64,000 nt of DNA from an uncultured Candidatus Saccharibacteria bacterium (GCA_964648765.1 CAZYLF010000001.1:357797-421796); one strand, 5' to 3'; numbered from the stretch's first letter, positions 5,601 through 31,317 are shown. Notes: generated by a model from the letters alone, not told the origin. Translations and numbers: made by a program.

Positions 5601-5654
5601 TGTTTACCAACTTATTCTATCGTCATAGGAATTTTGTTGTAGTATAATATTTCC

Positions 5655-6179
5655 GTGTTTACAAGGCCGGAAAATAATCTGGAAAATTTTAAAATTGATC
5701 ACGGGCAAATTGTGGCCGACTTTGGCGCTGGTATCGGAGCTTATTCTCTCGCCATGGCACGCCAAGTGGGCGACTCCGGCAAAGTGTATGCCATTGATGT
5801 GCAAAAGGATTTGCTCGGCCGACTCTCTAAGGAGGCCTCACGGTTAAAAATTTCTAATATTGAAGTTATTTGGGGCGATGTGGAGAAGGTGGGTGGGAGC
5901 AAATTGCCTGATCGCAGTGTGGACCTGGTACTTATCTCCAACATCCTATTTCAATCTCACGCTAAATATTCTATTCTTAAAGAGGCTAAGCGAATTTTAA
6001 AACCCGGCGGGCGTTTGGTGATTATTGATTGGGAGGATTCATTTAATAATCTCGGTCCAGAGCAAGGGGCAATAATAAAGCCCGAAGAGCTTGAGAAAAT
6101 TTTAATCGATCTTGGCCTAAAAATTTTAAAAAAGTTTAAAGCCGGCGACCACCATTATGGCCTGGTAACTACTTTATGA
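5655..6179 (+). CDS. class I SAM-dependent methyltransferase
   Basis: Motif I VADFGAGIGAYS (GxGxG). The later segment LKPGGRLVIIDWE is motif-IV-like. GTG start immediately after TATAAT. The stop overlaps the next gene start (ATGA). Confidence 0.7.
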   Translation: MFTRPENNLENFKIDHGQIVADFGAGIGAYSLAMARQVGDSGKVYAIDVQKDLLGRLSKEASRLKISNIEVIWGDVEKVGGSKLPDRSVDLVLISNILFQSHAKYSILKEAKRILKPGGRLVIIDWEDSFNNLGPEQGAIIKPEELEKILIDLGLKILKKFKAGDHHYGLVTTL

Positions 6180-7495
6180 AAAATTTAAATACATTCCAAC
6201 TAGTACTTATTGGCGGGCTTATTTTCTTAGGAATTGTGGGTGTGCTTGTTTTTTCTGGTATTTTGCCTGGTTTTCGCGACGGCATAAACAACAATAAAGC
6301 CTTGGTAAATTTAACTTTGTGGGGGACTTTTCCGGCAGATAAATTACGAATACCAATTGATAATTTTAATGAACTATACGATAAATCATTTCGTCTTACC
6401 TATGTGGCTAAACGAGATCAGAAAACACTTGAGAATGATTTTGTAAATGAGCTAGCAAGTGGCAGAGGACCAGATTTAATCATCATGGCACCAGAGATGA
6501 TTTGGAATCAGCGCGAGCGTCTCCACATGATCCCTTACAAGGTTTTTCCTCAAAGAGATTTTATTGATGCGTTTATTGATGCCGGAAAGATCTACTTAAA
6601 TCAGGAGGCGATCATAGCTTTGCCTTTAGTGGTTGATCCTTTGGTGATGTATTTCAATCGGGACTTAGTGCGAGGTCAGGGGATTGCCGAGCCGCCCAAA
6701 AATTGGACTAAGATTATTGAGACTATTCCAAGTTTTTTCTCTCGTGACGTAAATCAAAATATTTTACGTACTTCCATCGCACTGGGAGAATTTGGGAACA
6801 TCGATCACGCTAAGGAGATATTTGCGATGCTCCTACTTCAAGCTGAAAATCCAATTATGAACTGGGGAGCAGATAGTAAGCCGCAGGTGTTTATTAACGA
6901 TGTTAAGTTTGGTGGCCCAGAGTCTGCGTCATTAGTCCTCAATTTTTTCAACCAGTTTTCTGATCCAGCCAAAACTTCTTATACGTGGAATAGTGCCATG
7001 CCTCGCTCCCGCGATTATTTTAGCCAAGGGCTAAGCGCCTTCTACTTGGGTTTAGCTAGTGAAAATCCAATAATTAAAGCAAAAAATCCTCATCTTAATT
7101 TTGACGTAGCGATTGTCCCACAAAAGAATGAAATCAGAAGAAGCACCTACGGAAAATTGTTTGGTGTGGCTGTTTCGCGCTCGGCTAAAAGTCCAAACGA
7201 TGCTTTAGCTGTAGCGCGCGCTGTTACTTTGGGTAATTTTGCAAAAGATCTAGCCACATCGCTCGCGATTGCCCCTGTGCGACTTGATTTACTTGGTGCT
7301 CCTCCCACAAACAACACAGCCACCCCAATTTTTTATAAATCAGCTGTGATCTCTAGTACTTGGTTAGATATTAATCCACCCGCAACTTTAAATATATTTA
7401 GCCAAAATTTGATTAAACTTAAAACTGGTCAAGTTAATTTACGAGACACGGTGGCAAAAATTGGCACGGAGCTAAACGCTTTGATCCAAAATTGA
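6176..7495 (+). CDS. membrane-anchored extracellular solute-binding-protein-like protein (ABC SBP family 1 fold), orphan
   Basis: N-terminal TM anchor followed by a roughly 400 aa periplasmic-type domain (GPDLIIMAPEMIWNQRERL..., LPLVVDPLVMYFNRDL). No permease or ATPase genes are adjacent. Confidence 0.5.
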   Translation: MKNLNTFQLVLIGGLIFLGIVGVLVFSGILPGFRDGINNNKALVNLTLWGTFPADKLRIPIDNFNELYDKSFRLTYVAKRDQKTLENDFVNELASGRGPDLIIMAPEMIWNQRERLHMIPYKVFPQRDFIDAFIDAGKIYLNQEAIIALPLVVDPLVMYFNRDLVRGQGIAEPPKNWTKIIETIPSFFSRDVNQNILRTSIALGEFGNIDHAKEIFAMLLLQAENPIMNWGADSKPQVFINDVKFGGPESASLVLNFFNQFSDPAKTSYTWNSAMPRSRDYFSQGLSAFYLGLASENPIIKAKNPHLNFDVAIVPQKNEIRRSTYGKLFGVAVSRSAKSPNDALAVARAVTLGNFAKDLATSLAIAPVRLDLLGAPPTNNTATPIFYKSAVISSTWLDINPPATLNIFSQNLIKLKTGQVNLRDTVAKIGTELNALIQN

Positions 7496-7498
7496 TTT

Positions 7499-7936
7499 AT
7501 GCTTAATAAATTTAGTTTAACTTTTTTACTTATCCTCACTGTTATGATTGCGGTCGTTGCAATACCGGTTGTTACCAGTGCGCAAGGCATAGTTAATTGC
7601 GGTAAAACAGATATGAATGATTCTAATGGCAACCCCACAGTGAGTAATCCTTGTGATTTTGATGATTTTATAAATATTGTTGTTAAGTTATACAATTATT
7701 TATTAGTAATAATTATTCCTATTGCCACAATCTCAATTGCCTATGCCGGCGTATTATATATGGTGTATTCCACCAACGACGGGAAGCGTAAAGAGGCACA
7801 TGATATAATTACTTCAGCCGTGTGGGGTTTGGCGGTGGCCCTGGCTGGTTACGTTATAGTCACAAGTGTTTTCAAACTTTTAGCGAATCCTGAAACTGAA
7901 ACAAGAGTGTTAGATAGTATACCAATCGAGAATTAA
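7499..7936 (+). CDS. pilin-like small membrane protein (VirB2/TrbC-like two-helix architecture), array member 1
   Basis: Signal/TM segment, then a Cys-containing extracellular segment (CGKTDMNDSNGNPTVSNPCDFDDF), then two hydrophobic helices separated by a charged loop (TNDGKRKEAHDIITSAVWGLAVALAGYVIV). Confidence 0.5.
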   Translation: MLNKFSLTFLLILTVMIAVVAIPVVTSAQGIVNCGKTDMNDSNGNPTVSNPCDFDDFINIVVKLYNYLLVIIIPIATISIAYAGVLYMVYSTNDGKRKEAHDIITSAVWGLAVALAGYVIVTSVFKLLANPETETRVLDSIPIEN

Positions 7937-7945
7937 TTTATTTTT

Positions 7946-8311
7946 ATGAAAGAATTTTTTATTAAAAAAGTTTTTGCGCAAGCGGGGATCACAATTGATA
8001 ATCCAAACCCCAATCCAGGTTCTGGAATCACCGTCGAGAATACGGACAAAATCACAAACCCACTCGGGATCAACGACATTTCTGGCCTTCTTGACCTTAT
8101 TTTAAGTATTATCATTACTTTGGGCACACCTTTAATTGCGATTATGATTGTTTATGCTGGCTTCCTTTATCTTACCGCCCAGGGTAATACTGATAAAATT
8201 TCCAAGGCCCACACGGCGTTGCTTTACACAGTCATTGGTGCGGCGATTATCCTTGGTTCATTTGTGATTAAGGAGGCAATCCAGGGCACAATCACCAATC
8301 TTAATCCATAA
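7946..8311 (+). CDS. pilin-like small membrane protein, array member 2
   Basis: 121 aa. N-terminal hydrophobic segment, then ITLGTPLIAIMIVYAGFLYLTAQGNTDKISKAHTALLYTVIGAAIILGSFVI. Same two-helix plus charged-loop layout as its neighbours. Confidence 0.5.
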   Translation: MKEFFIKKVFAQAGITIDNPNPNPGSGITVENTDKITNPLGINDISGLLDLILSIIITLGTPLIAIMIVYAGFLYLTAQGNTDKISKAHTALLYTVIGAAIILGSFVIKEAIQGTITNLNP

Positions 8312-8318
8312 TTTATTC

Positions 8319-8618
8319 ATGTCACCTGATTTATCATCATTTAAAGCTGTCGTGAAGTTTGCAATTGATACTTTTATTAGTCCGTTTACAATTATTTTAA
8401 TTACTCTCTCGATCTTATATTTTCTTTACGGTTTGAGTCGCTATATTCGTACTGATATTAGCGAGGGCGATAAAGAGGAAGCCAAGCAAGTGATGATCTG
8501 GGGAGTGGTTGGGCTATTTGCCATTGTGGCGATGTGGGGCTTGGTGACAATTGTTCAGAAAACCTTTTCTCTTGATAGCAACACAATTGGCTTGCCGTCA
8601 GGAGTAACACCTCTATGA
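8319..8618 (+). CDS. pilin-like small membrane protein, array member 3
   Basis: 99 aa. ILYFLYGLSRYIRTDISEGDKEEAKQVMIWGVVGLFAIVAMWGLVTIV carries the conserved LYF..G....I......G..EEAK..M.WGV..LFA.V.MWGLV motif. Its stop overlaps the start of member 4. Confidence 0.55.
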   Translation: MSPDLSSFKAVVKFAIDTFISPFTIILITLSILYFLYGLSRYIRTDISEGDKEEAKQVMIWGVVGLFAIVAMWGLVTIVQKTFSLDSNTIGLPSGVTPL

Positions 8619-8920
8619 ACGCTTTTACTGAAAAAATTATAATACCAATAAACGGACTGCTTAAGATGGTGGCACCTATCATTATCGCTTTGGCTGTTCT
8701 TTATTTTGTATGGGGAATAGCCAAATATATTAAGGATTCAGCCAGTGAGGGTGCCCAAGAGGAGGCAAAGAACATAATGTTGTGGGGAGTGATTGTGATA
8801 TTTGTGATGGTCTCAATGTGGGGCTTGGTGGCGATCTTAACCAGAACGTTCGGTATCACTCCAGGTGGAGGACCACCAATAAATGGCATTGAAGAATTAA
8901 TTCCCGTGCCGACAAGTTAA
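8615..8920 (+). CDS. pilin-like small membrane protein, array member 4
   Basis: 101 aa. VLYFVWGIAKYIKDSASEGAQEEAKNIMLWGVIVIFVMVSMWGLVAIL is the same motif. The C-terminal tail is Gly/Pro-rich. Confidence 0.55.
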   Translation: MNAFTEKIIIPINGLLKMVAPIIIALAVLYFVWGIAKYIKDSASEGAQEEAKNIMLWGVIVIFVMVSMWGLVAILTRTFGITPGGGPPINGIEELIPVPTS

Positions 8921-8945
8921 ATTATTAATTTATAATAAATATATT

Positions 8946-9248
8946 ATGGCAGCATTTAATTGTTCGGGTGTAGGTTTAGAGAAGATAGTTTGTGTGGCTG
9001 GTAGTCTTATTGCGTCATTAGTGCCAATCGTAATGGTGCTTGCACTTCTTTACTTCTTCTGGGGTCTAGCTAAATTTATTTTGGCTGCAGGTAATGAGGG
9101 AGCTAAAGCAGAAGGTAAAAATATTATGATCTGGGGAGTGGTGGCACTTTTTGTGATGGTTAGTGTGTGGGGATTAGTGGCTTTCCTTCAAGATACCTTT
9201 GGGGTTAACGAATTTGTTGTACCCACAGTTGAGTTGCCAACGCTCTAA
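8946..9248 (+). CDS. pilin-like small membrane protein, array member 5
   Basis: 100 aa. LLYFFWGLAKFILAAGNEGAKAEGKNIMIWGVVALFVMVSVWGLVAFL. Confidence 0.55.
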   Translation: MAAFNCSGVGLEKIVCVAGSLIASLVPIVMVLALLYFFWGLAKFILAAGNEGAKAEGKNIMIWGVVALFVMVSVWGLVAFLQDTFGVNEFVVPTVELPTL

Positions 9249-9291
9249 GTAATTATTATAATTAATCATTATTAGTATTTAAGTTAAATAA

Positions 9292-9663
9292 ATGAAATTA
9301 AAAATTAAGTTATTAAGCACAGTTTCTTCTTTGGCTCTTTTGGCACCAGCTCTTGTGTTTGCTCAGAACGCCTCAAAGGTCACCGGTATTCTTAACATTC
9401 TCCAAACTATCGTAAACACTTTAGTACCAATCGTAATGGTGCTCGCTGTACTCTACTTCTTCTGGGGTTTGGCTCAATACATTTTGGCCGCTGGTAGTGA
9501 GGATGCTAAAGATAAAGGCAAGAGGATCATGATTGGAGGTGTTATTGCTCTTTTTGTGATGGTTTCAATCTGGGGATTAATTACCTGGTTAGGTGATGTG
9601 ATAGGCGTAGACACTGGTGGTGATATTGATCTACCCAACGTTAACGTCCCTGACGTAAGATAG
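9292..9663 (+). CDS. pilin-like small membrane protein, array member 6 (with a cleavable signal peptide)
   Basis: 123 aa. Signal peptide ...ALVFAQNAS, then VLYFFWGLAQYILAAGSEDAKDKGKRIMIGGVIALFVMVSIWGLITWL. Confidence 0.55.
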   Translation: MKLKIKLLSTVSSLALLAPALVFAQNASKVTGILNILQTIVNTLVPIVMVLAVLYFFWGLAQYILAAGSEDAKDKGKRIMIGGVIALFVMVSIWGLITWLGDVIGVDTGGDIDLPNVNVPDVR

Positions 9664-9670
9664 TTTATTT

Positions 9671-9919
9671 GTGGGAGCTACTGAGTTTATTGGTAAAATA
9701 AAAAGTGAGATCTTGGTGCCTGCCGTCACTTTGATGATGGCACTAGGAGTACTCTACTTTCTCTATGGGGTGTTTGTGTTTATCAAAGGCGCCAATAGTG
9801 AAGAGGCGCGGAGCACTGGCAGGAGACATATGATGTGGGGAGTTTTCGGACTCTTCCTTATGGTCTCAGTGCTTGGTATCATGAATCTTATTTGTGACAC
9901 ACTCGGAGCTGGTTGCTAG
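9671..9919 (+). CDS. pilin-like small membrane protein, array member 7 (GTG start)
   Basis: 82 aa. VLYFLYGVFVFIKGANSEEARSTGRRHMMWGVFGLFLMVSVLGIM. It is the shortest member and ends in a Cys pair. Confidence 0.5.
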   Translation: MGATEFIGKIKSEILVPAVTLMMALGVLYFLYGVFVFIKGANSEEARSTGRRHMMWGVFGLFLMVSVLGIMNLICDTLGAGC

Positions 9920-9938: not shown

Positions 9939-9970
9939 GAGGGCCCGATCGATAAATCGACCGGGCCCTT
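9939..9970. terminator. bidirectional terminator hairpin between the pilin array (+) and a convergent minus-strand operon
   Basis: agggcccg atcgataaatcga cgggccct. The minus orientation is followed by TCTTTTTATT. Confidence 0.6.
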
Positions 9971-9974
9971 TGCC

Positions 9975-10688
9975 TTACTTCTTCTTTTTTGGTGCGTATG
10001 TCACAAGAGCCGGAAATCTTCCGCCACTTGTGCTTATGAGTCGGACGCGTGCGTCCTTCATAGGCGTATCTGCACCAATCCAGCAGTCGCTATTTTTGTT
10101 ATCCTTACAACTGCTGTTGTAGTTTGAACCAGCGGCGATTATCTTCACCTGCTTTCGCGGATCACCGTCTACTGGCCTAACACTAACATCCACGATACCT
10201 GGTATCGTGTTGATCTCGGTCAGAATCCGTGATGGTTCTGGCCCTACCTCGATCACAAACGATTTTGCATTTGGATCGTTCTCGGGTTTAGGGAGTTCAA
10301 TGTAACCTTGGGTTACTGGCTTTTGTGCACTGGCGCCCGCTGCATTCACCTGACGAATCAGGTCAATGTAACGGAGCACATCTGCTTGCCAGTAGTAACC
10401 AGCACCCACAATCAGCATTAGGAACACAAACCACGCCAACTTGTTCCCACCTTTCTTTTTTTCTGGCTTGGTTTCCTTAGTTTTTACCTCAGGCTTCTTG
10501 ATTTCAGGAACCTTTGCCTTGTCGGCATTTGCTACAGTGGAGTCGTCTTGCTTCTTTGCTCCCATCTCATCCTTCTTTCTACTTTTACTTCTGCTTCTTA
10601 GGATGATGGGTAGAGCAATGAAAGTGAGAGCCCCTCCAACTATGAGTAAGATTGGTACTGCCGCCCAAAAAAATTGGGTTGTAGTCAT
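9975..10688 (-). CDS. two-TM membrane protein with a Lys-rich linker and a C-terminal soluble domain. May be an NfeD-like partner of the upstream SPFH protein.
   Basis: 237 aa with two hydrophobic helices and a KKPEVKTKETKPEKKK linker. The start is translationally coupled to the SPFH stop (TAATG). SPFH genes commonly pair with NfeD-type membrane proteins, but no motif was confirmed. Confidence 0.4.
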   Translation of the reverse strand: MTTTQFFWAAVPILLIVGGALTFIALPIILRSRSKSRKKDEMGAKKQDDSTVANADKAKVPEIKKPEVKTKETKPEKKKGGNKLAWFVFLMLIVGAGYYWQADVLRYIDLIRQVNAAGASAQKPVTQGYIELPKPENDPNAKSFVIEVGPEPSRILTEINTIPGIVDVSVRPVDGDPRKQVKIIAAGSNYNSSCKDNKNSDCWIGADTPMKDARVRLISTSGGRFPALVTYAPKKKK

Positions 10689-11773
10689 TAGGGTGTTCCT
10701 TTCGTTTTGATTGGATTAACGGGCGGAAGATTAACTATGGTTGGGGAACCTGTCCCTCCAATGTTTAATACTTGCCCCTTAAATTCAGCCAACTTTGCTG
10801 TTGCTCTAGACTGCAGATAGTGGGGCATATTCTCACTACCTACTGCTGTTTTTTGTTTGTCCAAAACTTCGGCTTCCGCCCCACCAACTTCTCTGATTCC
10901 CTTTGCTTGGTACTTAGAGGTTTCGAACAGAGCCTCACCGTTCAAGGTAGCCAATTCCTTGGCCTTTTGAGCCTTAACGCTTTCGGCGTCGGAGCCAGCT
11001 GGGGTAGAGGAGACATAGTTATATGCGGCAACCCTGACTCCCGCTACTCTGATGAGTACATTTTCATACTCCTTAGTTACGGGGTCACGTGTGACGCTTT
11101 GGAATCTTCTGAGATACTCGGAGATTAACACTTGCTTGTCTTCACTGTTGAATGAAGTGTAATCTGGTATCTTTGGATTCTTGCAGCAGTTATCGATTGC
11201 ACCGTTTACTACGTTCACTGCTTTCAGGAACCACTTACCTTTTAGGGCAAAAACTGCCAACTCAGGATCAATGGCTTCAAAGGTGATCTCTCCCACTATG
11301 TCGACGGTGAAGCCACTTAGGAGTTCTACACCTTTAGTTTCAATTGGGTAGGTGAAAAGATGATACATTGAGTCTACCACTTCTGGTTCTCTCATTCGGA
11401 TTTTGTATTCTCCGGTATCAGTTTTTTTCTTTTCCCACTCTGCCCACTCAAATTTGTATTCGTGGATGGTATAAATTGGCCAAAAAAACGGACCATAAAT
11501 ACCAAACCAACCATACTTCCAGGGGTTGAGAATTTTCCTGAATCCAGAAGTATTGTCGTCAACAATACTCCTGTCCCCATCGATCGTTTTGTTTTTGACG
11601 TTGATTAGGATGTAGCGTAAGTCACCACCTGCGGTGACGAACTTGATCTCCCGCTCATCTACCAATGTGAAGATAATGTCATAATGTGCCAATGCGTATG
11701 CAGTCAAAGTAAGCCCAAGCACAAACACACCAACTGCCGATATCCCCGCGCTCACTGCCACCAAAATTTCCAT
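10688..11773 (-). CDS. SPFH / band-7 (stomatin-prohibitin-flotillin-HflK/C) domain membrane protein
   Basis: The start is at the internal ATG 11773 (MEILVAVSAG...) with SD AAAGGAGACTCAAA. N-terminal TM, then an SPFH-like core (VDIVGEITFEAIDPELAVF..., coiled-coil tail SVKAQKAKELATLNGEALFETSKYQAKG). Confidence 0.6.
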   Translation of the reverse strand: MEILVAVSAGISAVGVFVLGLTLTAYALAHYDIIFTLVDEREIKFVTAGGDLRYILINVKNKTIDGDRSIVDDNTSGFRKILNPWKYGWFGIYGPFFWPIYTIHEYKFEWAEWEKKKTDTGEYKIRMREPEVVDSMYHLFTYPIETKGVELLSGFTVDIVGEITFEAIDPELAVFALKGKWFLKAVNVVNGAIDNCCKNPKIPDYTSFNSEDKQVLISEYLRRFQSVTRDPVTKEYENVLIRVAGVRVAAYNYVSSTPAGSDAESVKAQKAKELATLNGEALFETSKYQAKGIREVGGAEAEVLDKQKTAVGSENMPHYLQSRATAKLAEFKGQVLNIGGTGSPTIVNLPPVNPIKTKGTP

Positions 11774-11843
11774 TTTGAGTCTCCTTTCCGCCCAAGGCGG
11801 AGGTAAATTCACTTATTAGGTTGTCAAACAACCACTGCTCGCG

Positions 11844-11871
11844 ATTATATCATACATTCGTAAAAAAGCAA
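11844..11871 (-). promoter_or_regulatory. sigma70-like promoter (-35 TTGCTT, 16-nt spacer, -10 TATAAT) carrying the shared ACTTGCTTTTTT element; drives the SPFH operon
   Basis: On the minus strand: cacaaaacTTGCTTttttacgaatgtatgaTATAATcgc. The same -35 block recurs at 13070..13098 and 13820..13847. Confidence 0.5.
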
Positions 11872-11902
11872 GTTTTGTGAGGGGTTAAAATATATAAGAA
11901 AA

Positions 11903-11931
11903 GACCCGCAAACGCTACGCGTTTGCGGGTC
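11903..11931 (-). terminator. rho-independent terminator (gacccgcaaacg/cgtttgcgggtc) after the 11959..12987 gene
   Basis: 12-bp stem. The minus orientation is followed by TTTTCTTATATATT. Confidence 0.65.
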
Positions 11932-11958
11932 CATATTTCTCCTTTTTCAAAAGAACAA

Positions 11959-12987
11959 TTACCGAAGTGGGCCAAACATCCGGACCTTGTCGGTGTCGCC
12001 AACCCCAGGCAGTGGGGCTCTAAGGTACGTGGTTCGCACAACCCCAGCATTGTCTGGATCAGTGTATTTACCTCCCCGGATTTGAATCACGTAGCACCCG
12101 TCAGGCGCTTTGACGCAATCCACATATCTTAGGAGGTTGAGGCCACCATACTCTCTCTCCACCAAAACATACGGCCACTTACCAACCGGACCTTCTGGGC
12201 TCTCGCGGTGGATGGATTCCGGTTCAACATCAATTGGTGGAGGTGAGTAGGATCTGTTATCACCACAGTTACCACTAGGGCAACGGTCGCGATGAAAGTT
12301 GTCGTACTCTTCCACACCTTTGTACATCATGTTGTTTTGTACGGGCGGTAACTCCTTGGTTACCACCACAGACTCAATCTGCTGGTTTGGAACGTTGGCG
12401 GCTGGTGTCGGAGCAGCAAGCTTGGCTGCTTCTAGCTCAGCTTCCAATTTTTTCCGATAATCCGCACCAGCATTTGAAGCTTCGTTGAACTTGGTCTGTT
12501 TCCACGCCTCGGTCTCATTGGTTTTGATGATTGCCCAGGTCACAGCAGCAGCTCCAATCACAAGCACAACAATCAGAACTGAATTACGGCTGAACCAAGA
12601 TAGGCCACTCTTCGGCTTCGTTTTTGCTGCTTTTTCAGCCTTCGCGATTTCGCTCAGCCGTTCCGCTTCCTTTTCAATGTAAGCTTGAACTTCCGTTTCT
12701 GTTATATTGGATCCTTCTGCGGGCTGAGCTTGCGCGGGTGGGGGATTGGCTGGCATTCGACACCCACCTTGGGTTGCAAGCTTTTCCAACGCTTTTTCCA
12801 TCCGATTGAATCCTGCAATCATTGCAGTTGATTCAGTTCGGTGTAAGGCTGCGTTGTCTTGCAGTTGGTTGAAGATCCTTTCGTACGGCGTTACCGTTCT
12901 TGCTGGTGCTGCAGCAGGCGCTGGTGTTTGAACAGGAACGGGCGCGCCCGTTCCATCTCCCGGGTCTCCATTTTGTCCGTCTGGCAT
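11959..12987 (-). CDS. hypothetical bitopic membrane protein (Pro/Ala-rich cytoplasmic N-terminus, one TM, C-terminal extracytoplasmic domain)
   Basis: 342 aa from a GC3-rich gene. The TM helix is VLIVVLVIGAAAVTWAII near residue 150. The C-terminal domain is ...WPYVLVEREYGGLNLLRYVDCVKAPDGCYVIQIRGGKYTDPDN.... No known motif recognised. Confidence 0.45.
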   Translation of the reverse strand: MPDGQNGDPGDGTGAPVPVQTPAPAAAPARTVTPYERIFNQLQDNAALHRTESTAMIAGFNRMEKALEKLATQGGCRMPANPPPAQAQPAEGSNITETEVQAYIEKEAERLSEIAKAEKAAKTKPKSGLSWFSRNSVLIVVLVIGAAAVTWAIIKTNETEAWKQTKFNEASNAGADYRKKLEAELEAAKLAAPTPAANVPNQQIESVVVTKELPPVQNNMMYKGVEEYDNFHRDRCPSGNCGDNRSYSPPPIDVEPESIHRESPEGPVGKWPYVLVEREYGGLNLLRYVDCVKAPDGCYVIQIRGGKYTDPDNAGVVRTTYLRAPLPGVGDTDKVRMFGPLR

Positions 12988-13069
12988 GATGTCTTCTCCT
13001 TATCTTTAGCTTTTGCCTCAATCTGAAACGATCAGAAGGGGCTCCACTAATTTTCAATGTCCTGGTCAT

Positions 13070-13098
13070 TTACTACCATATGATTATAAAAAAAGCAA
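13070..13098 (-). promoter_or_regulatory. promoter with shared -35 block (TTGCTT, 17-nt spacer, weak -10 TAGTAA) for the 11959..12987 gene
   Basis: On the minus strand: tccacatggacTTGCTTtttttataatcatatggTAGTAAatg. The CACA-N3-ACTTGCTTTTTT block is conserved with the promoters at 11844 and 13820. Confidence 0.4.
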
Positions 13099-13117
13099 GT
13101 CCATGTGGACGTAATAA

Positions 13118-13146
13118 AGGGGCCTCATAAATGAGACCCCTTTTTT
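13118..13146. terminator. terminator hairpin (aggggcctcat/atgagacccct plus T6) downstream of the lipoprotein gene
   Basis: 11-bp stem with one mismatch, followed by TTTTTT on the + strand. Lies between two minus-strand genes. Confidence 0.5.
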
Positions 13147-13155
13147 GGACGCTTA

Positions 13156-13752
13156 CTATCGTCCTCGTCCGCCTTTCCGACCTCCTCGGTCGTTGTTGGC
13201 TTGGCGATTAGATTCACCTCGCGCACGCCCACCCCCGCGCCCTGCATTTTCACTACGCTCAGGACGTGAGCCGTTGGCACTTTGCCTCGTGGGTGAGCTA
13301 CTCCTCACCGTGCGCCGTTCACCATGTTGCTCGATAGAAGAGCGACTGGCACGGACACTGCGAGGACCAGAGCCACGACTGTTGTTGTGCACATCAACGT
13401 CGACGTGAACCACGCGACCGCGACTTCCGTGACCGTGCACGTAGCCATGATCACGATACCACTCCCGGCGACCACACACATCGCGATAGTACCCCCACGC
13501 CACCACTGTGCCTGGGCACCAGGCGTCGTAGTATACATGCGTGACCGGATGGTACCAGCGGGACACGTAAGCGGGTCCACTAACTACCACTGACCCACTG
13601 ACCGCCACCGGCACACTGGGGGCAAAGCCCTCAGTGGTCTCGGTGACCACTTGCTGCCCTTGAGCATCGTACGACACTGTCCGCGTGTGTGTGGAGCAAC
13701 CGCTAGCCGCAAACAACAAACCAACCAAACCGATAATCGTGAAATTACGCAT
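13156..13752 (-). CDS. lipoprotein with an Arg/Gly-rich (RGG-like) disordered C-terminal tail
   Basis: The signal plus lipobox LFAASGC is followed by a Trp/Tyr/His-rich domain (WYHPVTHVYYDAWCPGTVVAWGYYRD). The last roughly 70 aa are RG/RS/GRG repeats (GRGGGRARGESNRQANNDRGGRKGGRGR). Confidence 0.45.
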   Translation of the reverse strand: MRNFTIIGLVGLLFAASGCSTHTRTVSYDAQGQQVVTETTEGFAPSVPVAVSGSVVVSGPAYVSRWYHPVTHVYYDAWCPGTVVAWGYYRDVCGRREWYRDHGYVHGHGSRGRVVHVDVDVHNNSRGSGPRSVRASRSSIEQHGERRTVRSSSPTRQSANGSRPERSENAGRGGGRARGESNRQANNDRGGRKGGRGR

Positions 13753-18683: not shown

Positions 18684-19274
18684 ATGCAAACATTACCTAA
18701 ATTGAAGTTTGAATATAATGCCCTGGAGCCGTACTTTGATGAGGCCACAATGAAGCTTCATCACACCAAGCATCATCAAACATATGTGGATAAGTTGAAT
18801 GAAGCGCTCGCTAAACATCCAGAATTGGCGGAGAAAAATTTAGAAGAACTTCTTGCCGATTTAAATAAAGTGCCGGAAGATATTCGTGGTGCAGTCAGGA
18901 ATCATGGTGGTGGTCATTTTAACCACACTTTTTTCTGGGACATTCTTAAACCAAATTCTGACGGGAAAGTCTCAATGCCGGAAGGGGAGATGTTAGAGAA
19001 AATCAACGCCAGTTTTGAAAGCTTTGAGAATTTCCAAAAGTTGTTTAAGGAAGCAGCACTCGCGCGCTTCGGCAGTGGCTGGGTGTGGCTCGTGGCTGAT
19101 GCAAATGATGAATTTAAAATTATCACCACGGCTAATCAAGACACGCCGCTTGAACTTAAGATGATCCCAATTATTGGTCTCGATGTGTGGGAGCATGCTT
19201 ATTATTTAAAATACCAAAATCGCCGCGCGGAATTTATTGACGCCTTCTTTTATTTGATTGACTGGAGCGTGTGA
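18684..19274 (+). CDS. sodA: Fe/Mn superoxide dismutase
   Basis: 196 aa with metal ligands and signatures: [32 protein letters not shown]. Confidence 0.9.
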
Positions 19275-19293
19275 GAGTGGTAAATTCAAGTTA

Positions 19294-20088
19294 ATGAATA
19301 TTGACGACTTAAATAAAAATCAAATCGTACTCTTGGTTCTTTTAGTTAGCTTTGTTACCTCAATTGCTACTGGCATTGTGACGGTGACGCTTATGGATCA
19401 AGCTCCCGCTGGTGTAACTCAAACTATTAATCGTGTGGTGGAGCGCACTGTGGAACGCGTGGTGCCAGGACCCACTCAAACCGCCACGGTGATTAAGGAG
19501 GTGCCGGTAATAATTACTGAAGAAGATCAGATCATCAGTGCAATTAAAAATTCTGAACCAGCAATTTTAAAGGTTGTTGCGGCAAATGATCCAGAAAAAA
19601 TGATTAGCTCTGGTTTCATTTTTTCTGATGATGGTTTGGTGGCCACCATTATGGACGCCTCCACTTCAAGCTCTAAAAAAATTAAATACCAAGCAATTTT
19701 AGCAAATGGAGACAAAAAGGATCTTGAATTTGTGCGAGAGGTTTCCGGAATTATGGTGATGCGTTTGCCACATACTGAAGTTGCCACAGATAAATTTACG
19801 TTTCTTGAACTAGCCGATGGTGAGCTTTCAGTGGGGCAAACTGTGCTTGCGATTGGCGCGCCACTTTCGTCATCTGAACCAAATATTTCAATTTCTAAAA
19901 TTGGCGCCATTTTAATGGGCAACGCTAGTTCAACACCTGAAATTAAAACTATCGCCGCCAGTCGCGAGAATTTTGGTGGCCCAGTTTTAAATATTAAGGG
20001 CAAAGTGGTGGGCATCAGCAAGGGCGCTGGACTTGCCACCAATTCCCAAGTCATTATGGCCCCACTTGCGAGCGCTGACACCATTTAG
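19294..20088 (+). CDS. membrane-anchored trypsin-fold (HtrA/DegP-like S1C) protein whose catalytic triad appears lost (pseudoprotease)
   Basis: Start is the internal ATG at 19294, read as MNIDDLNKNQIV. TM anchor, then a chymotrypsin-like fold, but the GNSGGP box reads ENFGGPVLN (Ser to Phe). The His (TNxHV to TIMDAS) and Asp positions are also substituted. Confidence 0.5.
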   Translation: MNIDDLNKNQIVLLVLLVSFVTSIATGIVTVTLMDQAPAGVTQTINRVVERTVERVVPGPTQTATVIKEVPVIITEEDQIISAIKNSEPAILKVVAANDPEKMISSGFIFSDDGLVATIMDASTSSSKKIKYQAILANGDKKDLEFVREVSGIMVMRLPHTEVATDKFTFLELADGELSVGQTVLAIGAPLSSSEPNISISKIGAILMGNASSTPEIKTIAASRENFGGPVLNIKGKVVGISKGAGLATNSQVIMAPLASADTI

Positions 20089-20112: not shown

Positions 20113-22815
20113 ATGCCACCATTTGGTAATTTTACGTCTAAAGCAAAGGAGGTAATCCGCAAGAGCCAGGAGTTGGCTGTGGAGCGCGGGCAAAATCAAG
20201 TTAGTCCTGTGCATCTTTTGGCGTCTCTATTAATCCAAGATGAGAGTGTGATGGTGTCAATTTTAGATAAGATAGAAGTGGATACTGTGATGCTCACAGA
20301 TTTTGTAATTGAGAGTTTGGATGGCAATGAGTCTGGTGCGGTGATTTCTCCTTCATATCAACTTTATCTCACGCCAGAGCTCGTAAGAATTTTCGACACT
20401 TCAGGCAAAATTGCTTCCAACATGCAGGATGAGTTTGTCTCAACTGAGCATTTAATTTTGGCAATTTTAGAAAGCCCAAATCCAGCTCACGAGATTTTGG
20501 CCCGCTTCCGCGTAAGTAAAGATAAGGTGTGGCGGATTATTCAAGAAATTCGTTCAGGAAAAATTCGTGACGTAGGTGAGAATAAACGCTTACGTTCGAT
20601 TGAAAAGTTTACCAAAAATCTCACCGACCTCGCCCGGCAAGACAAACTTGACCCGGTAATTGGCAGAGAGGAGGAGACTCAAAGAGTGATGGAGATTCTC
20701 TCGCGCCGTACTAAAAATAATCCAATTTTAATTGGTGAAGCCGGCACGGGTAAAACGGCAATCGCTGAAGGCTTGGCAATTAAAATTGCAAAAGGTGATG
20801 TGCCAGAATCTTTACGGGACAAAGATCTAGTTTCTCTGGACCTCGGACTTTTGGTGGCCGGTACTAAATATCGCGGTGAGTTTGAGGAGCGTTTAAAAAA
20901 TGTGTTGAAGGAGGTGGAGAAAGCCCAAAACAAAATTATTTTATTTATCGACGAGATCCATACTATTGTGGGCGCTGGTGCCGCTGAAGGAGCGATTGAT
21001 GCTTCCAACATGCTCAAGCCAGCCTTGGCGCGCGGTGAGCTCCGAGCGATTGGTGCCACCACGCTTAAGGAATATCAAAAGCATATTGAACGTGATCAAG
21101 CACTCACACGCCGTTTTCAACCGGTGCTTGTGGAGGAACCAGCCGTGGATGATGCGGTGGCAATTTTGCGTGGTTTAAAAGATAAGTATGAATCGCATCA
21201 CGGTGTGCATATTACTGATGAGGCGCTTGTGTCTGCGGTTAATCTCTCAAGTCGCTATATTACTGACCGCTTTTTGCCAGACAAGGCTATTGATTTAGTA
21301 GATGAAGCTTGCTCGGCACTGAGATTACAACTTGAAAATAAACCCGCCTCACTTGATGTGGCGCAGACTAAAATTATGCGCTTGGAGGTGGAGCGCGAAG
21401 CACTTAAAAAAGAAATTTTAAGTAAGGATGATAAAAAGTTAAAAAATCGCATCCAGGTGGTGGAGCGAGCCATTGAGGAACTTAAAGAGTCTACTCGTGA
21501 GCTTGAACTGAAGTGGAAAAATGAAAAGCAAGTGATCAATGAAATTAAAACTCTAAAGCTCGAGCTTGAAACTTTGCGCCTCGAGGCCGATCAGGCCGAG
21601 ATGAAGTCCGACCTTACTCGCGCCGCCGAAATTCGCTATGGAAGAATCCCGGCGATAGATAAAGAATTAAAGTTAAAAAAGACCCGTCTTAAAAAACTCC
21701 AAAGCTCGCGCAAAATCTTAAAGGAGGAAATTACTGGTGAAGACATCGCGCGCGTGGTGGCGCGTTGGACCCACATCCCCGTGATGCGCATGCTTGAAGA
21801 AGAGTCAGAAAAATTAGGAAGAATTGAGGATTCGCTCAAATCGCGCGTGCGCGGACAAAATGATGCCGTGCGGAAAATCGCTGAAGCTATTAAACGTTCA
21901 CGCGCCGGCATTTCTGACCCTGATCGCCCAATTGGCTCATTTATTTTGCTCGGACCAACCGGCGTGGGTAAAACTGAATTGGCTAAAACTATCGCCAACT
22001 TTATGTTTGATGATGATAAGTCATTGATCCGTATTGATATGTCGGAATACATGGAGAAGTATTCTGTTTCAAAATTAATTGGTTCACCGCCGGGTTACGT
22101 GGGTCACGATGAGGGTGGTGCGCTCACGGAGGTGGTGCGTCACCGACCTTATTCGGTGTTACTTTTTGACGAAATTGAAAAGGCTCACCCAGAAGTTTTC
22201 AACATTTTACTTCAAGTACTCGATAACGGCCGACTTACCGACTCTAAAGGCCGCGTGGTTAACTTTAAAAACACCATCATTATCCTCACTTCAAACATTG
22301 GGAGCGAGTTTATGAACAAGATGAATAAAATCGGCTTCGTCTCTGATGGCGAGTCGCGGACTCAATATGTGGATGTGAAAACTAAAATTATGGAAAGTTT
22401 AAAAAATCATTTCCGACCAGAATTCTTAAACCGCTTGGATGATGTGATTATTTTTGATCCGCTCTCACAAGACACAATTAAAGAAATTGTGGAACTCCAA
22501 GTTAATTTGGTGCGCAAGCGTTTAGCTGATAAAAATCTGGAGTTAGAAATTACGCCCGAGATGCATGAGTACTTGGCTCGAGAGGGTTACTCGCATGAGT
22601 ATGGGGTGCGACCACTTAAACGCTTGATTCAAAATAAAATTTTAAATCCCGTGGCTGAGTTTATTATTGCTCGCAAAGTTGAGGGTGGGGGATTAATCTC
22701 TGTGGGAGTTAAGGAAGGCCAACCTAATGTTGAAATCAAAAAAGTTTTCACCATTGAGCGCTCTCCGCGTCCTAAAACCAAAAAAGAATCAAATCTCGCT
22801 GGAGTTACGGCTTAA
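20113..22815 (+). CDS. clpB: ClpB disaggregase (AAA+ chaperone with two NBDs and an M-domain)
   Basis: 900 aa. Clp-N repeats. D1 Walker A GEAGTGKT and Walker [10 protein letters not shown]. Long coiled-coil M-domain. D2 Walker A GPTGVGKT and Walker [12 protein letters not shown]. No ClpP-binding IGF loop. Confidence 0.9.
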
Positions 22816-23374: not shown

Positions 23375-26300
23375 ATGAATAAAATGAGCATGAAGGTTTT
23401 GGTCACATTAGTGATAGTTTTGGTGGTGGGTTTTGGGGTTTATTTTGCTTTGCCTTATCTCAATATTTCTCCCTCAGGCGCGTCGGCGCAAGTGGTGCAA
23501 TCTCGACTTGTACCAGAGAAGGTTTCAACCTCCGCGCCAATTTCTGTGGCTATACCAAATTCACTTGAAGCAAATGTAGTAGAGCAAGTAGTTTTTGAAC
23601 CTCAAATTTCTGGTAGATGGCAAGCTGATGAAGCGGGTAAGTTGGTGACGGTAAGCGATTCAAAATCCAAAACCAAAATTTATTATTTCCAACCAAGTAG
23701 AGAACTTGAACTTGGTAAATATTATGCGGCCAAAGTTAATATTTCCGCAGACCAAATCCTCTCAGAGGATTTTTTAGTTGCGCCTGATCCAGAGATTTTG
23801 GCAATTTTACCTGCTGATGAAGAGGTGTTGCCAGAGACTAAAATTACTATTTCATTTAGTCGTCCGATGGTGCCGCTTAGTCGCTTAGATGAATTTGTAA
23901 ATGAATCACTCCCCGTAACCGTTACTCCAATAACTGAAGGGCGCTTTAAATGGATCAACACCAGCACTTTGCAATTTATCCCAAGTGAAAAGTTAATTTC
24001 TTCAGCGCGATATCAAGTTTCAGTGGGTGAGGGGTTGCGGTCAATTGAGGGTTTAGCGGTTAAGCCCAAAAGTGCCACATTTACTACCTACCAATTAGGT
24101 TACCTAAAAACAAATGAAGAATATTTTGGTTCCGGTATTGTGCGCGGGTACAATCAGCCATTTATAATTCGTTTTAATCAGGGTGTGGATTTAGAAAAAA
24201 CTAAACCCAACATTTCAATTGTAAGTAATGGCAAGAGCATACCTTTTTCTGTTTCTTATGCGGAAAAGTTAGTTGATGATAAAAAAATTACTGATTTTAA
24301 TACTCTGGAACTTCATCCTGAGGGTGAGGGTGGCCGTTGGCAAACCAAACAAAGTTATGCGGTTAGGGTAAATAAGGCTTACCCCAAATCTGGTGGGGAT
24401 ATCATTATTGATCAACCTTCAGTTGTAAATTATCAGGTGGGGAGCGTGATCAGCAGCTCAAACGTGGTGTCACCACGCGGCCAAGTGGAGATGGATAGCT
24501 TTGATCCGATGGGTACACTTGAGGTGAGTTTTTATGAAGATATTGATTTGGACAGAAGCAGGATTGCGAGTGCAAAAATTTCAAAGATTGTGTATGGCGA
24601 AAAGTGTGACGAAACTTCACCTCGTAAATGTGTAAAAGTACCAAACAAAAAGCAAATTATTATTTCTTTTAAATCTAATCTTAAACCATCAGAAAAGTTC
24701 GCGGTGACATTTGAAAAAGTCATTTCAGCAAATGGCGATAATTTAGGTGATGAAGCCGAGATAATAAATTTAAAGGTTTATGATCCGTTAGTTATTTATA
24801 GTATTAGTAGCGGTGATCATCTTGGGCACTTTACTGTTTGTTCAAATAATCCACTTAAGGGCCCCGCCGACGACGGCACGGGCAGTGAATTTAATATCGT
24901 ACCTTCATTTGAGACAAGTAACTTTAATGGATCTTATTTGGTGAGGAGTCAGCAGAATCAGATATGTAAGGTTGGCCAATATTCTAGTACAGTTTCTGGT
25001 TATCTCGTTGGCAGTCAAAAGTATGATGTGAGCGCAAAAATTAAAGACGTATTTGGCGGTGAGGTAAGTGGCACTTACACCTTTACTTCTCGAGCCGTAA
25101 GAGAGAGTGATTATGTAATTTTGAGTCATCAACAAAGTGGGGTGGTCACCGTGCCTAGCCGCACTAAACTCACTTTTTCTGCTAAATATTTACCGTCAGT
25201 GTCGGTTAGTGTTTGCCGTTTAAGCCCAAGCAATTTTAATCAAGCCCGAGATAGTTATGATGAATCAATCAATCTCCCTTGTGATGAAAAAATTAATAAA
25301 GTAATCCCACTTGTGGTTAATAATCCCGAGAGTCGATTTTTCACTGTTGATCTTAAAGATTATTTCCCAAATGTAATTGGTAATTATTTGGTCACCGTGG
25401 ATAGCTCAATTCCTATTAGTGTCAAAAATTGGCAAAGAAGCGCTCGCACTTTGGTGTCGGTAACCAATTTAATTGTAACTGAAAAGCGGATTAACCCGAG
25501 CGAAAAGGGTGAGTACGATTCTTCAATTCTTAGTGGCGCCCAATTGGGTGAGCTTAAAAATCTTTATTGGGTAATTGATGCAAACACTCGTGAGCCGGTG
25601 GTGGGGGCGATTGTGGGACTTTACCGTAAGGGAGCTTTAGTAAGTAGTTCAGTCACCGATCTTAAAGGTTTGGCATTTATCTCTCCAGTGGCGGGTGCCG
25701 ACATGACGGTGATAACTAGCGGCCAAGACAAAGTTGTTCTCTCAAGCAATTCCTCGTCGCTAAGTTGGGCTTCAAAAGCGGTAAACAATAAACATTATTA
25801 TCTTTACACTGATAAGCCAATTTATCGCCCTGGGCAAGAAGTAAATATAAAAGGATTTTACCGACTTGGTTACGATGGTAATTATCAGGTGCCAGCAGGT
25901 CAAACTGTGCCGCTAAAAATTTCTGATTCTAGCGGAAAAATTATCAAAGAAGAGAATCTTCAAACAAATAGTTACGGGGCGATTGCCACCAATCTTAAGA
26001 TTGAGAGTTCTGCATCGCTTGGGAGTTATCGAGCTTGCGTGGGGTATCAATGTGCCACGTTTGAAGTTCTAAATTACGCTCCAGCCGCGTTTAGGGTAGC
26101 GCTTAGCACAGACGGTGATGAATTTACATTTAGTAATCCACCAAAAGTAAATCTTAAGGCGGACTATTACTTTGGTGTGCCAGTATCGGGAGCTACAGTG
26201 GATTATCATTTAAGTAGTCAGTATTACTACTTTGATAAATTTACTGGTGAGTATTTTAGTTTCAACAATATTTTTGAACAGGATGAAAATGGTTATGGCG

Positions 26301-29300: not shown

Positions 29301-29596
29301 ACTTCATTCCGGCTGGACTAGAAATTATTGATACGAGTTTGAGCACTGAGGATCAAACACTTAACGATGAGCTTAGCCAGTTTAGACGTGATCAGTTTTC
29401 CCCATCGCACCGCGAGTGGCGAGACGATCGAGCCTTCCTCTTTAAAGAAAGATTGAGACCTGGAACTTATAAGTTTGAGTATTTGGTCAGAGCGTTAGTG
29501 CCAGGTAATTACTTACATTTGCCTGCGCAAATTTGGGAAATGGATAATCCAGAAAACTTTGGTCGCTCAAATGCTTCACGCTTCAGCGTAAAATAA
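23375..29596 (+). CDS. bacterial alpha-2-macroglobulin family protein (MG-domain-rich, apparently thioester-less)
   Basis: 2073 aa. Signal/anchor, many Ig-like MG domains, bait-like region, and LPDNLTTWQVEAVGMT (A2M signature). The thioester site aligns as YPYRNAENLG where YPYGCxEQ is expected (about 28131..28160), so Cys and Gln are absent. Confidence 0.8.
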   Translation: MNKMSMKVLVTLVIVLVVGFGVYFALPYLNISPSGASAQVVQSRLVPEKVSTSAPISVAIPNSLEANVVEQVVFEPQISGRWQADEAGKLVTVSDSKSKTKIYYFQPSRELELGKYYAAKVNISADQILSEDFLVAPDPEILAILPADEEVLPETKITISFSRPMVPLSRLDEFVNESLPVTVTPITEGRFKWINTSTLQFIPSEKLISSARYQVSVGEGLRSIEGLAVKPKSATFTTYQLGYLKTNEEYFGSGIVRGYNQPFIIRFNQGVDLEKTKPNISIVSNGKSIPFSVSYAEKLVDDKKITDFNTLELHPEGEGGRWQTKQSYAVRVNKAYPKSGGDIIIDQPSVVNYQVGSVISSSNVVSPRGQVEMDSFDPMGTLEVSFYEDIDLDRSRIASAKISKIVYGEKCDETSPRKCVKVPNKKQIIISFKSNLKPSEKFAVTFEKVISANGDNLGDEAEIINLKVYDPLVIYSISSGDHLGHFTVCSNNPLKGPADDGTGSEFNIVPSFETSNFNGSYLVRSQQNQICKVGQYSSTVSGYLVGSQKYDVSAKIKDVFGGEVSGTYTFTSRAVRESDYVILSHQQSGVVTVPSRTKLTFSAKYLPSVSVSVCRLSPSNFNQARDSYDESINLPCDEKINKVIPLVVNNPESRFFTVDLKDYFPNVIGNYLVTVDSSIPISVKNWQRSARTLVSVTNLIVTEKRINPSEKGEYDSSILSGAQLGELKNLYWVIDANTREPVVGAIVGLYRKGALVSSSVTDLKGLAFISPVAGADMTVITSGQDKVVLSSNSSSLSWASKAVNNKHYYLYTDKPIYRPGQEVNIKGFYRLGYDGNYQVPAGQTVPLKISDSSGKIIKEENLQTNSYGAIATNLKIESSASLGSYRACVGYQCATFEVLNYAPAAFRVALSTDGDEFTFSNPPKVNLKADYYFGVPVSGATVDYHLSSQYYYFDKFTGEYFSFNNIFEQDENGYGEYYYYGDSYIGNGKAVLGENGEVIIEPKIKVGELNNPSQSKIIILDATVKNQTGRSISSQKSYILHAAPIYLGSKVEENFAPAGSPISLKVKSVNTSGEPVALGGIEAEVYKINWVEEKRPAGNGQDYSIWKRTRELVKTENFRTNNAGDASVSLVVSGEGEYEVDVKTGGNQAVGSRTWFYLYGNQSVNVRGGDDTSLKIKAEKRDLNLGEKGKVVMEIPEGKAKALVTIERGRVFTYEVLDIKGNLANYEFPVVADYYPNVRLSVVLYAPDREVRYGAYDFKVASKQKNLKISLTTDKKVYKPGDDVVLVVNTSDEFGRPQAAELSLAVVDMSVLALRGNPKKTPVDQLYGNLPLTVATYSNFKNLLKYIDPSGGEGKGGSGNDPNSGKRRGVFKEVALWKPSLITDSAGRASVTFKLPDNLTTWQVEAVGMTLDTKVGASYQEFSTKKLLMVTPLKPRFVLPGDEFAIGAQVFNQSENSLNLDVTLAIPGLEITDKANKSVSVKKGETKTIYWNTKVPTTIKPGNLTYSLSAIGGGLSDIVDDELKVNANTLYEVTATAGKTTSRTTELVYVPDTILRDQGELVIESSATLAVYLAPALEYFNNYPYRNAENLGSRLNTLALISEVASVPNLKTWSTGDVKLQIAEDLKSLYNLQNYDGGFRFWAESRYSDTWATFEAVSTFAQLSRAGYPVDNGVWTRANNYLLEQYLRTDVTYTDPDLLEFVKALFTQETHRGNNRLTKDLTRISRALIDDKKSSTAHLLTVSEILNRYGILGSEARKVDSMLKNRMVIDSRGTFLDLGPRGLYSGSAIANTARYISLLVMKKESENELINLLRWLTASRDKEGAWGGTKNSQLAVKAIVEYLKWQPETNARFTLENRLNDQAVMNFNFEPNTILSQIKKVFPLSELKFGDLNTVSIGKKTPAEIGNTYYSMVFKYFLPADQALARDEGMSISRNFFALDDEENTTPLTEAKVGEVMRAQLEIVVPVTRRLVAIEDFIPAGLEIIDTSLSTEDQTLNDELSQFRRDQFSPSHREWRDDRAFLFKERLRPGTYKFEYLVRALVPGNYLHLPAQIWEMDNPENFGRSNASRFSVK

Positions 29597-31316: not shown

Positions 31317-31317
31317 G

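Follow-up and report, generated by a model that had tools for sequence, protein, structure and literature searches.

Tandem arrays of genes encoding the VirB2-like pilins that belong to type IV secretion systems (T4SS) have been described from genomes of Patescibacteria, and an array of this kind, consisting of seven small genes and located in a 64,000-nucleotide stretch of DNA (GCA_964648765.1, CAZYLF010000001.1:357797-421796; hereafter the window, with positions counted from its first nucleotide), is the subject of the present analysis. According to the survey by Quinonero-Coronel et al. (Microb Genom 2025; PMC12102498), 3,035 Patescibacteria genomes were searched with the Pfam models PF18895 (T4SS_pilin) and PF04956 (TrbC/VirB2), and 441 'VirB2 arrays' of 2–11 genes, with a mean identity of 25% and a maximum of 54%, were found in 383 assemblies. 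VirB4 was present in 2,417 of the 3,035 assemblies, a pilin gene was located near virB4 in 1,135 of 1,948, and in Paceibacteria virB4 was placed near dnaA and dnaN. Wang et al. (Cell 2023; PMC10633639) described six tandem PF18895 genes, SEML1_0014–0019, that stand next to the T4SS genes in Ca. Southlakia epibionticum ML1, and each of the six was scored as essential by transposon sequencing. A T4SS review of 2025 repeats the description of the S. epibionticum array and speculates on a pilus-like conduit.

The tandem PF18895 array of the window is of the kind already described, and the locus adds a further example: such arrays are recognised as at least two tandem PF18895 or PF04956 genes in a Patescibacteria genome, and seven were found here, the taxon of the window being presumed from its syntenic relatives. 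Like the published arrays, for example SEML1_0014–0019 and the 'Sec-secreted array' of TM7x, it consists of tandem same-strand PF18895 genes (about 80–185 amino acids, aa), the products of which are two-helix hairpins of low mutual identity (18–59% in the window), and it is chromosomal in a CPR (candidate phyla radiation) genome, with no relaxase context. Unlike these, the array lies outside a T4SS cluster and, next to gyrA, apparently shares an operon with a gene for a solute-binding protein of the MalE type. The arrays of the survey belong mostly to Microgenomatia and Saccharimonadia, while that of the window is of the Paceibacteria type. Neither a fixed order of pilin types nor hypervariability of a cassette, both described below, is mentioned in the accessible text of PMC12102498 and PMC10633639, and a term search of the former did not find the words 'solute', 'substrate-binding' and 'gyrA'.

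The proteins also resemble the VirB2, TrbC and TraA pilins of diderm bacteria (PF04956), which are small, with two hydrophobic helices, a short basic loop and, in some, a cleaved leader. They differ from these in a sub-threshold score, in the monoderm organism, in the presence of several distinct types of paralog where those systems have a single major pilin, in the lack of adjacent VirB3/4/5/6 genes, and in that no structural match was obtained. All seven match the NF045849 protein of a mycoplasma integrative and conjugative element, which comes from a monoderm conjugation system of the MPF-FATA type (MPF, mating-pair formation); that protein is encoded by a single gene in a mobile element, whereas the window contains a chromosomal array with scores below the cut-off of the model. 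The MPF-FATA class is thought to be the source of the T4SS of Patescibacteria. In Bartonella and Anaplasma, several diverged VirB2-like genes likewise stand in a row, and an antigenic or host-range role has been proposed for them; those systems are diderm and effector-translocating, whereas in the window the types are ancient and their order is fixed, which argues for a division of labour.

Family membership and architecture of the array proteins

PF18895 is matched by all seven members in the Pfam scan, with five of them above its gathering score of 26.6 bits (23.9, 25.3, 29.0, 30.6, 39.3, 42.5 and 29.4 bits for members 1–7, numbered in array order). Members 1 and 2, just below the threshold, score 78 and 59 bits with a family profile that includes both. 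Weak matches to PF04956, the gathering score of which is 27.9 bits, were given by member 2 (19.5 bits, E 1.2e-3) and member 6 (19.2 bits, E 1.4e-3). The NCBIfam model NF045849 (Mbov_0395 family pilin-like conjugal transfer protein) is matched by all seven proteins with E-values from 7e-9 to 9e-4 and 18.9–35.3 bits (paralog 4, E 6.8e-9), its 80 positions being covered nearly full length by each; its 40-bit equivalog cut-off is reached by no member, which indicates remote homology only. The seven proteins are members of the VirB2/TrbC-like T4SS pilin family and two-helix membrane hairpins of one family, as had been proposed in the sequence-only reading of this DNA.

Readings as type IV pilins (PilA/ComGC) and as Flp/TadE pilins were rejected: neither a class III signal or Flp motif nor a Pfam match at E ≤ 1 was found for them in any of the seven. 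As a separate observation, the NF045849 matches hint that monoderm systems of the MPF-FATA type possess a relative of these pilins; VirB2 homologues are stated to be absent from the MPF-FATA class in the 2025 survey (PMC12102498).

The family is large. A word-indexed search, in which the 8,000 best candidates were scored, gave at least 3,263 homologs of the seven-member profile; among those listed, all 120 carry PF18895, and five bear the NCBI name 'pilin'. An exhaustive search with the profile gave 43,260 cluster representatives (50% identity) at E ≤ 1e-3.

All seven proteins contain two long hydrophobic helices with a short charged loop between them, as seen from hydropathy and loop composition; the loop carries 2–4 Lys/Arg residues, and acidic tails form the C-termini. 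Member 6, modelled with AlphaFold2 (64 aligned sequences, pLDDT 79.7), consists of a signal-like N-terminal helix and a hairpin of helices 27–65 and 70–103. The two-helix layout suggested earlier is borne out by these data, and the loop and helix-2 motifs quoted with it match members 3–7 and do not match members 1 and 2. The cleavable signal peptide suggested for member 6 can be read from its sequence as a classical Sec-type signal, with the putative cleavage site between ALVFA and QN; features of member 1, likewise read from the sequence, are given in Table 1. Distances between successive paralogs are 9, 7, −4, 25, 43 and 7 nt, the negative value being an ATGA overlap at 8615. The overlap had been noted correctly, and the gaps of 8–50 nt reported with it come close to the measured 7–43 nt.

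Conserved operon and five positional types

Relatives of the binding protein in 56 GTDB species genomes defined the related loci. Nearly all of these genomes are labelled Patescibacteria, mostly Parcubacteria/Paceibacteria (Yonath-, Vogel-, Nomura-, Giovannoni- and Terrybacteria). The binding-protein gene is followed by same-strand PF18895 genes, usually five, in all 50 of the 56 loci that have enough downstream DNA, and the syntenic block comprises genes for Lactamase_B_3, GyrA, a methyltransferase and the binding protein, followed by the array.

A positional best-hit matrix, built on 32 five-gene arrays, was used together with independent position-specific hidden Markov models (HMMs); the array positions are designated P1–P5. 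Best hits between these arrays fall on the same position in 93, 100, 52, 65 and 86% of cases for positions 1–5, and the window genes are classed by the position HMMs as P1, P2, P3, P3/4, P3/4, P4 and P5. Own-position scores are 98 bits for paralog 1 (P1), 113 for paralog 2 (P2), 119 for paralog 6 (P4) and 100 for paralog 7 (P5), while the middle copies give, with the P3 and P4 models respectively, 99 and 81 bits (paralog 3), 98 and 96 (paralog 4), and 99 and 101 (paralog 5). The best matches of paralog 1 are at array position 1, and those of paralog 7 are the last genes of other arrays. Arrays of four or six genes are nearly all ordered P1-P2-(P3)-P4-P5, the exceptions being L032, L042 and L050, and the number of middle copies (members 3–5 in the window) varies among genomes. 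These comparisons indicate that the paralogs represent five ancient types, the order of which, P1-P2-P3-P4-P5, is fixed across Paceibacteria.

The types differ in their terminal segments. P1 has a signal peptide and, in orthologs, a conserved Cys pair (C..GxDCGFDDL); orthologs of P2 have a signal peptide and the motif ENP(I/L); P4 has a signal peptide and the highest family score. Most sequences of P3, with its Pro-rich C-terminal tail, and of P5, about 80 aa long, are free of a signal peptide. Member 2 of the window begins MKEFFIKKVFAQAG and lacks the hydrophobic signal-peptide core of its P2 orthologs, the space upstream being too short for a longer open reading frame (ORF); its N-terminal segment of 45 residues contains no evident export signal.

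Pairwise local identity of the paralogs is highest among members 3–6 (58% between paralogs 5 and 6). In DNA, the array copies are only 62–77% identical and are therefore old duplicates, so that recent gene conversion or duplication among them was ruled out.

Across the 32 five-gene arrays, the spacer preceding P4 has a median length of 114 nt vs at most 21 nt at the other junctions, and it is enriched in promoter-like hexamers, matches at 9 or more of 12 positions being present in 78% of cases vs 29% of shuffles. An internal promoter probably precedes P4, and promoter-like sites in the window are listed in Table 1. In enrichment cultures of Paceibacteria, the function-unknown genes with the highest expression included T4SS pilin genes, two of them neighbours (PMC10936435).

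Natural fusions follow the array order: P0007 is a fusion of P2 and P3, and P0003 of P4 and P5, which points to side-by-side contact of different types. Polypeptides with tandem PF18895 hairpins were also observed in metagenomes, namely P0242 (three domains), P0256 (six), P0268 (seven), P0313 (eight) and P0300 (six). These polyproteins contain up to about 16 predicted transmembrane (TM) helices, the linkers inspected are without obvious signal-peptidase sites, and in sequence they look like fused arrays.

Table 1. Coordinates of the array genes and associated features in the window
Feature	Position	Strand	Length	Description
Pilin paralog 1	7499-7936	+	145 aa	Type P1; signal-peptide-like N-terminus, extracellular segment with Cys34 and Cys52, then two-helix hairpin
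Pilin paralog 2	7946-8311	+	121 aa	Type P2; Asn/Pro/Gly-rich N-terminal segment, (E/T)NP(L/I) motif, then hairpin
Pilin paralog 3	8319-8618	+	99 aa	Type P3; no signal peptide; C-terminal tail contains Pro
Pilin paralog 4	8615-8920	+	101 aa	Extra middle copy, intermediate in type between P3 and P4
Pilin paralog 5	8946-9248	+	100 aa	Extra middle copy, intermediate in type between P3 and P4; N-terminal Cys 6 and 16
Pilin paralog 6	9292-9663	+	123 aa	Type P4; Sec-type signal peptide and hairpin
Pilin paralog 7	9671-9919	+	82 aa	Type P5; shortest; GTG start; no signal peptide; C-terminal Cys
Promoter-like site	8909-8936			Ahead of paralog 5
Promoter-like site	9234-9262	+		TTGCCA-17-TATAAT, 11/12; just ahead of paralog 6; candidate internal promoter for the P4-P5 pair
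Promoter-like site	5620-5648			Ahead of the methyltransferase gene
Methyltransferase, S-adenosylmethionine-dependent	5655-6179	+		Pfam Methyltransf_31/11/25; first gene of the apparent transcription unit; 4-nt overlap with the next gene
Solute-binding protein	6176-7495	+	439 aa	Membrane-anchored, family 1 (MalE-type, oligosaccharide class); left end of the hypervariable cassette
Hairpin	9940-9969		13 bp	G+C-rich, -26.6 kcal/mol, z -3.8; with the array on one side and the convergent minus-strand gene 9975-10688 on the other

Divergence of the cassette between close relatives

The window was compared with one closely related lineage, represented by L059, L060 and L061 (Logan SRR25435840, SRR25435848 and SRR25435842). 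Amino acid identity to the L059 lineage is 94% for Lactamase_B_3, 97% for GyrA and 94% for the methyltransferase in the flank, vs 60% for the binding protein and 48–65% for the pilins, which together constitute the cassette. In the flank genes, the synonymous divergence (dS) is 0.5–0.9 and the nonsynonymous divergence (dN) 0.02–0.03; in the cassette, synonymous sites are saturated (proportion of differing synonymous sites, pS, 0.69–0.80), and dN is 0.33–0.50. Of the four-fold degenerate third positions at residues identical in both genomes, 34% differ in the flanks (n=555), which for this count include a fourth gene, orf86, and 68.5% of those of the cassette do so (n=216; p = 6e-18, Fisher test). 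Divergence steps up where the methyltransferase gene ends and the binding-protein gene begins.

Identity of the binding protein stays at about 60–63% irrespective of whether the methyltransferase is 94% or 79% identical, or gyrA (in nucleotides) 88% or 76%, so that the history of the cassette is deeper than that of its backbone. Sequence comparison with this single close lineage suggests that the cassette was either exchanged by recombination or maintained as divergent alleles. The most variable parts of the pilins are the exposed N-terminal (and C-terminal) segments.

Surface-module diversification between genomes is real, and the array is not invariant among related genomes. In the sequence-only reading, the seven adjacent diverged paralogs had been taken as the signature of a diversifying surface system. 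For the paralogs themselves this was not upheld: the types are ancient, their order is fixed, and each of six is scored as essential in S. epibionticum. As a statement on the whole cassette between genomes it does hold, for the one pair of lineages compared; a recent diversification of the paralogs is not supported.

Clustering of contig ends in the array was rejected as a statistic of strain heterogeneity, since the end of a short contig necessarily lies close to the query gene. The L059, L060 and L061 assemblies, three independent ones of the closest relative, all end inside the array, two of them at the same base of pilin gene 4 and the third within P1; as an anecdote, these breaks could reflect strain heterogeneity.

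Downstream of the array, four minus-strand ORFs of 237, 374, 342 and 198 aa (9975-13752) give no Pfam match above threshold, and three of them contain a TM-like hydrophobic segment. The 374-aa gene (10688-11812, minus strand) is alone among them in having homologs, weak ones (about 27%), in 10–17 related loci, and a search of 5.8 billion proteins with the 361-aa form of its product returned only itself at E ≤ 1e-10. The G+C content climbs to 0.525 at 12–14 kb, the array itself having about 0.40. Variability may reach past the array, into 9975-13752.

Proposed function and alternative explanations

The array is explained best, and with moderate confidence, as the Paceibacteria version of the VirB2-like T4SS pilin array of Patescibacteria, in which the paralogs would serve, without redundancy, as subunits of a hetero-oligomeric conduit or pilus that depends on a T4SS. 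We infer the topology, the T4SS dependence, the subunit roles and any pilus. Each protein would be inserted in the cytoplasmic membrane so that its two ends face outward and its Lys/Arg-containing loop faces inward; cleavable Sec signals would be used by P1 and P4, and helix 1 would anchor the other types. A VirB4-type T4SS (monoderm, MPF-FATA-like), encoded elsewhere in the genome, would build the types, each of them non-redundant, into a single hetero-oligomeric tube or pilus that spans the envelope and touches the host cell these bacteria depend on. P4 and P5, located behind the conserved internal promoter region, would probably be abundant subunits, with paralog 6 (P4) as the candidate major subunit, and P1 and P2, with their extra exposed N-terminal modules, would probably be minor or distal ones. 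The binding protein and the pilins would evolve as one cassette, swapped or retained as old alleles between near-identical genomes, and such behaviour fits a host- or ligand-specific surface contact.

Several results weigh against this explanation. Pfam scans of the 39 ORFs that reach 150 aa in the 64-kb window, except a 185-aa minus-strand ORF (19527-20084) nested entirely in the plus-strand gene 19258-20088, detected no VirB4, VirB6, VirD4, PrgI, PilB, PilC or prepilin peptidase, in agreement with the earlier statement that machinery of a T4SS or type IV pilus is missing from the window. Within 10 kb, no conserved VirB4-sized or MPF gene was found across the 56 related loci; the single T4SS-type gene near any of them (L032:999-3512, about 9 kb upstream of the operon) encodes an 837-aa ATPase resembling type IV coupling proteins, with the domains TrwB_AAD_bind, T4SS-DNA_transf and TraG-D_C. 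The gathering score of PF04956 was reached by none of the seven members in the Pfam scan. When solved structures were searched with the fold of the hairpin model, generic helical hairpins and no conjugative pilin were returned, and a sequence-profile search of the PDB with the array proteins returned nothing; a two-helix hairpin is too generic for such searches to be informative. A pilus of these proteins has never been observed in any Patescibacterium in the literature, and six to eight covalently linked hairpins, as in the polyproteins, are awkward for a classical pilus of free subunits. The roles given to P1–P5 are an inference, and the result on cassette exchange comes from one closely related lineage.

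In an extended form of the T4SS-dependent explanation, the five types and the orphan binding protein would constitute one hetero-oligomeric organelle for host contact or uptake, with a specificity cassette swapped by recombination. This form has a low probability. The organelle might be a tube with layers of different paralogs, in which the binding protein would be the component of specificity or ligand capture; swapping of the cassette between near-identical Paceibacteria would then alter the host or substrate range, and the structure would be a new modular T4SS-derived surface machine, not a homopolymeric conjugative pilus.

A reading of the seven paralogs as mutually interchangeable variants of a single pilin, amplified and diverged to let the cell display alternative surfaces in antigenic or host-range variation, as proposed for VirB2 of Bartonella and Anaplasma, is unlikely. 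The idea is raised in PMC12102498 and is consistent with the low identity of the paralogs, with the variability of their exposed N- and C-terminal segments, with the hypervariability of the cassette between close relatives and with the differing number of middle copies among genomes. However, the same five types stand in the same order over many Paceibacteria lineages, the copies are old, and the array is a single operon with neither a switching element nor an arrangement of silent copies. In-order natural fusions suggest that the types work jointly. According to PMC10633639, each of the six S. epibionticum paralogs is scored as essential, which argues for non-redundant subunits over interchangeable variants.

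An equally improbable alternative is that the hairpins are not pilins and form a hetero-oligomeric ring or channel embedded in the membrane, independent of any T4SS and acting with the orphan solute-binding protein in uptake or sensing. The linkage of the array to a binding protein that lacks a permease is strict in 50 loci, and the two diverge together; conserved T4SS genes are missing within 10 kb, three of the five types have no signal peptide, and the polyproteins resemble integral membrane proteins. On the other hand, gyrA and the methyltransferase gene are equally syntenic, so adjacency is weak evidence of a functional link; the proteins show remote similarity to TrbC/VirB2 and to the mycoplasma conjugal transfer protein; and in Saccharimonadia, as described in PMC10633639, members of the family are located inside an essential T4SS locus in which no binding protein is present.

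That the genes are chance ORFs or pseudogenes within an AT-rich spacer, for which their small size and the omission of the seventh from the Logan gene calls might speak, has a negligible probability and is refuted by the conservation data: family HMM matches were obtained for all seven, positional orthologs are present in 50 loci, dN/dS is 0.11–0.20 where estimable, well under 1, and two independent assemblies, the NCBI record, a contig of 553,057 bp in which paralog 7 is called as a gene (P0082), and the Logan contigs, are 100% identical over 14 kb. The seven ORFs, found on one strand and with the lengths of 82–145 aa given in the sequence-only reading, are real genes, with positional orthologs in 50 other loci.

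The CPR/Patescibacteria are ultrasmall bacteria that attach to hosts and draw resources from them, and in their sole genetically tractable species the T4SS and its pilin array are essential. The locus provides a fixed set of five subunit types, a P4-P5 pair that is likely highly expressed, and a co-evolving binding protein, which predict the subunits to be tagged, deleted or imaged first. Exchange of the cassette or retention of its old alleles, suggested for one pair of lineages, is the pattern expected of a determinant of host specificity.

Transcription unit and flanking genes

The methyltransferase gene, the binding-protein gene and the seven PF18895 genes form one apparent transcription unit, the array starting 3 nt past the end of the binding-protein gene. 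The methyltransferase gene is present upstream in 55 of the 56 related loci and, judged from the comparison of genomes, is part of the conserved backbone, outside the variable cassette.

On its own, the binding protein of the window gives no Pfam match and in NCBIfam only a match to MalE (E 3.6e-5). In its homologs, which bear the name extracellular solute-binding protein, PF13416/PF01547 are present, and the profile of the family matches sugar-binding proteins in the PDB (4r9f, E 2e-20). The AlphaFold2 model (pLDDT 94) shows residues 6–27 as a TM helix and a two-lobed fold of the periplasmic-binding-protein type II, its Foldseek match being the cyclo/maltodextrin-binding protein 2zyo (E 1e-20, TM-score 0.72–0.81). 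These data support the earlier description of the array as lying directly after a membrane-anchored solute-binding-like protein. Genes for the permease or ATPase of an ATP-binding cassette transporter were found neither in the window, by Pfam scans, nor in the conserved neighbourhood of the related loci.

The hairpin following the array is likely a terminator for both converging transcription units. A bidirectional terminator had been predicted at this place; the strong hairpin agrees with the prediction, while the T-tract rule holds only on the minus-strand side, the T-run of the plus strand starting a few bases later, so that bidirectional function is just plausible.

Other features of the window

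By its gene content, the window belongs to the chromosome of a bacterium with a small genome. Information processing is represented by gyrA, topA, dprA, parB, serS, uvrC and the genes for translation initiation factor IF-2 and the DNA polymerase III clamp loader (gamma/tau), and envelope and stress functions by ddl and the genes for Fe/Mn superoxide dismutase, ClpB, a penicillin-binding protein and alpha-2-macroglobulin.

A large serine recombinase (domains Resolvase, Recombinase and Zn_ribbon_recom) is encoded at 60896-62428 on the minus strand, the G+C content at 60–64 kb rises to 0.49–0.54, and an integrated element may have its border here. The gene of the 2,073-aa alpha-2-macroglobulin (23375-29596, plus strand) stands tail to tail with that of a class A penicillin-binding protein (29598-31448, minus strand) containing transglycosylase and transpeptidase domains, a pairing known from other bacteria. 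The 817-aa product of the gene at 44446-46899 contains only the second AAA module of ClpB/ClpC (AAA_2 and ClpB_D2-small, residues 558–806), its N-terminal 550 residues being without assignment; a full ClpB is encoded separately at 20113-22815.

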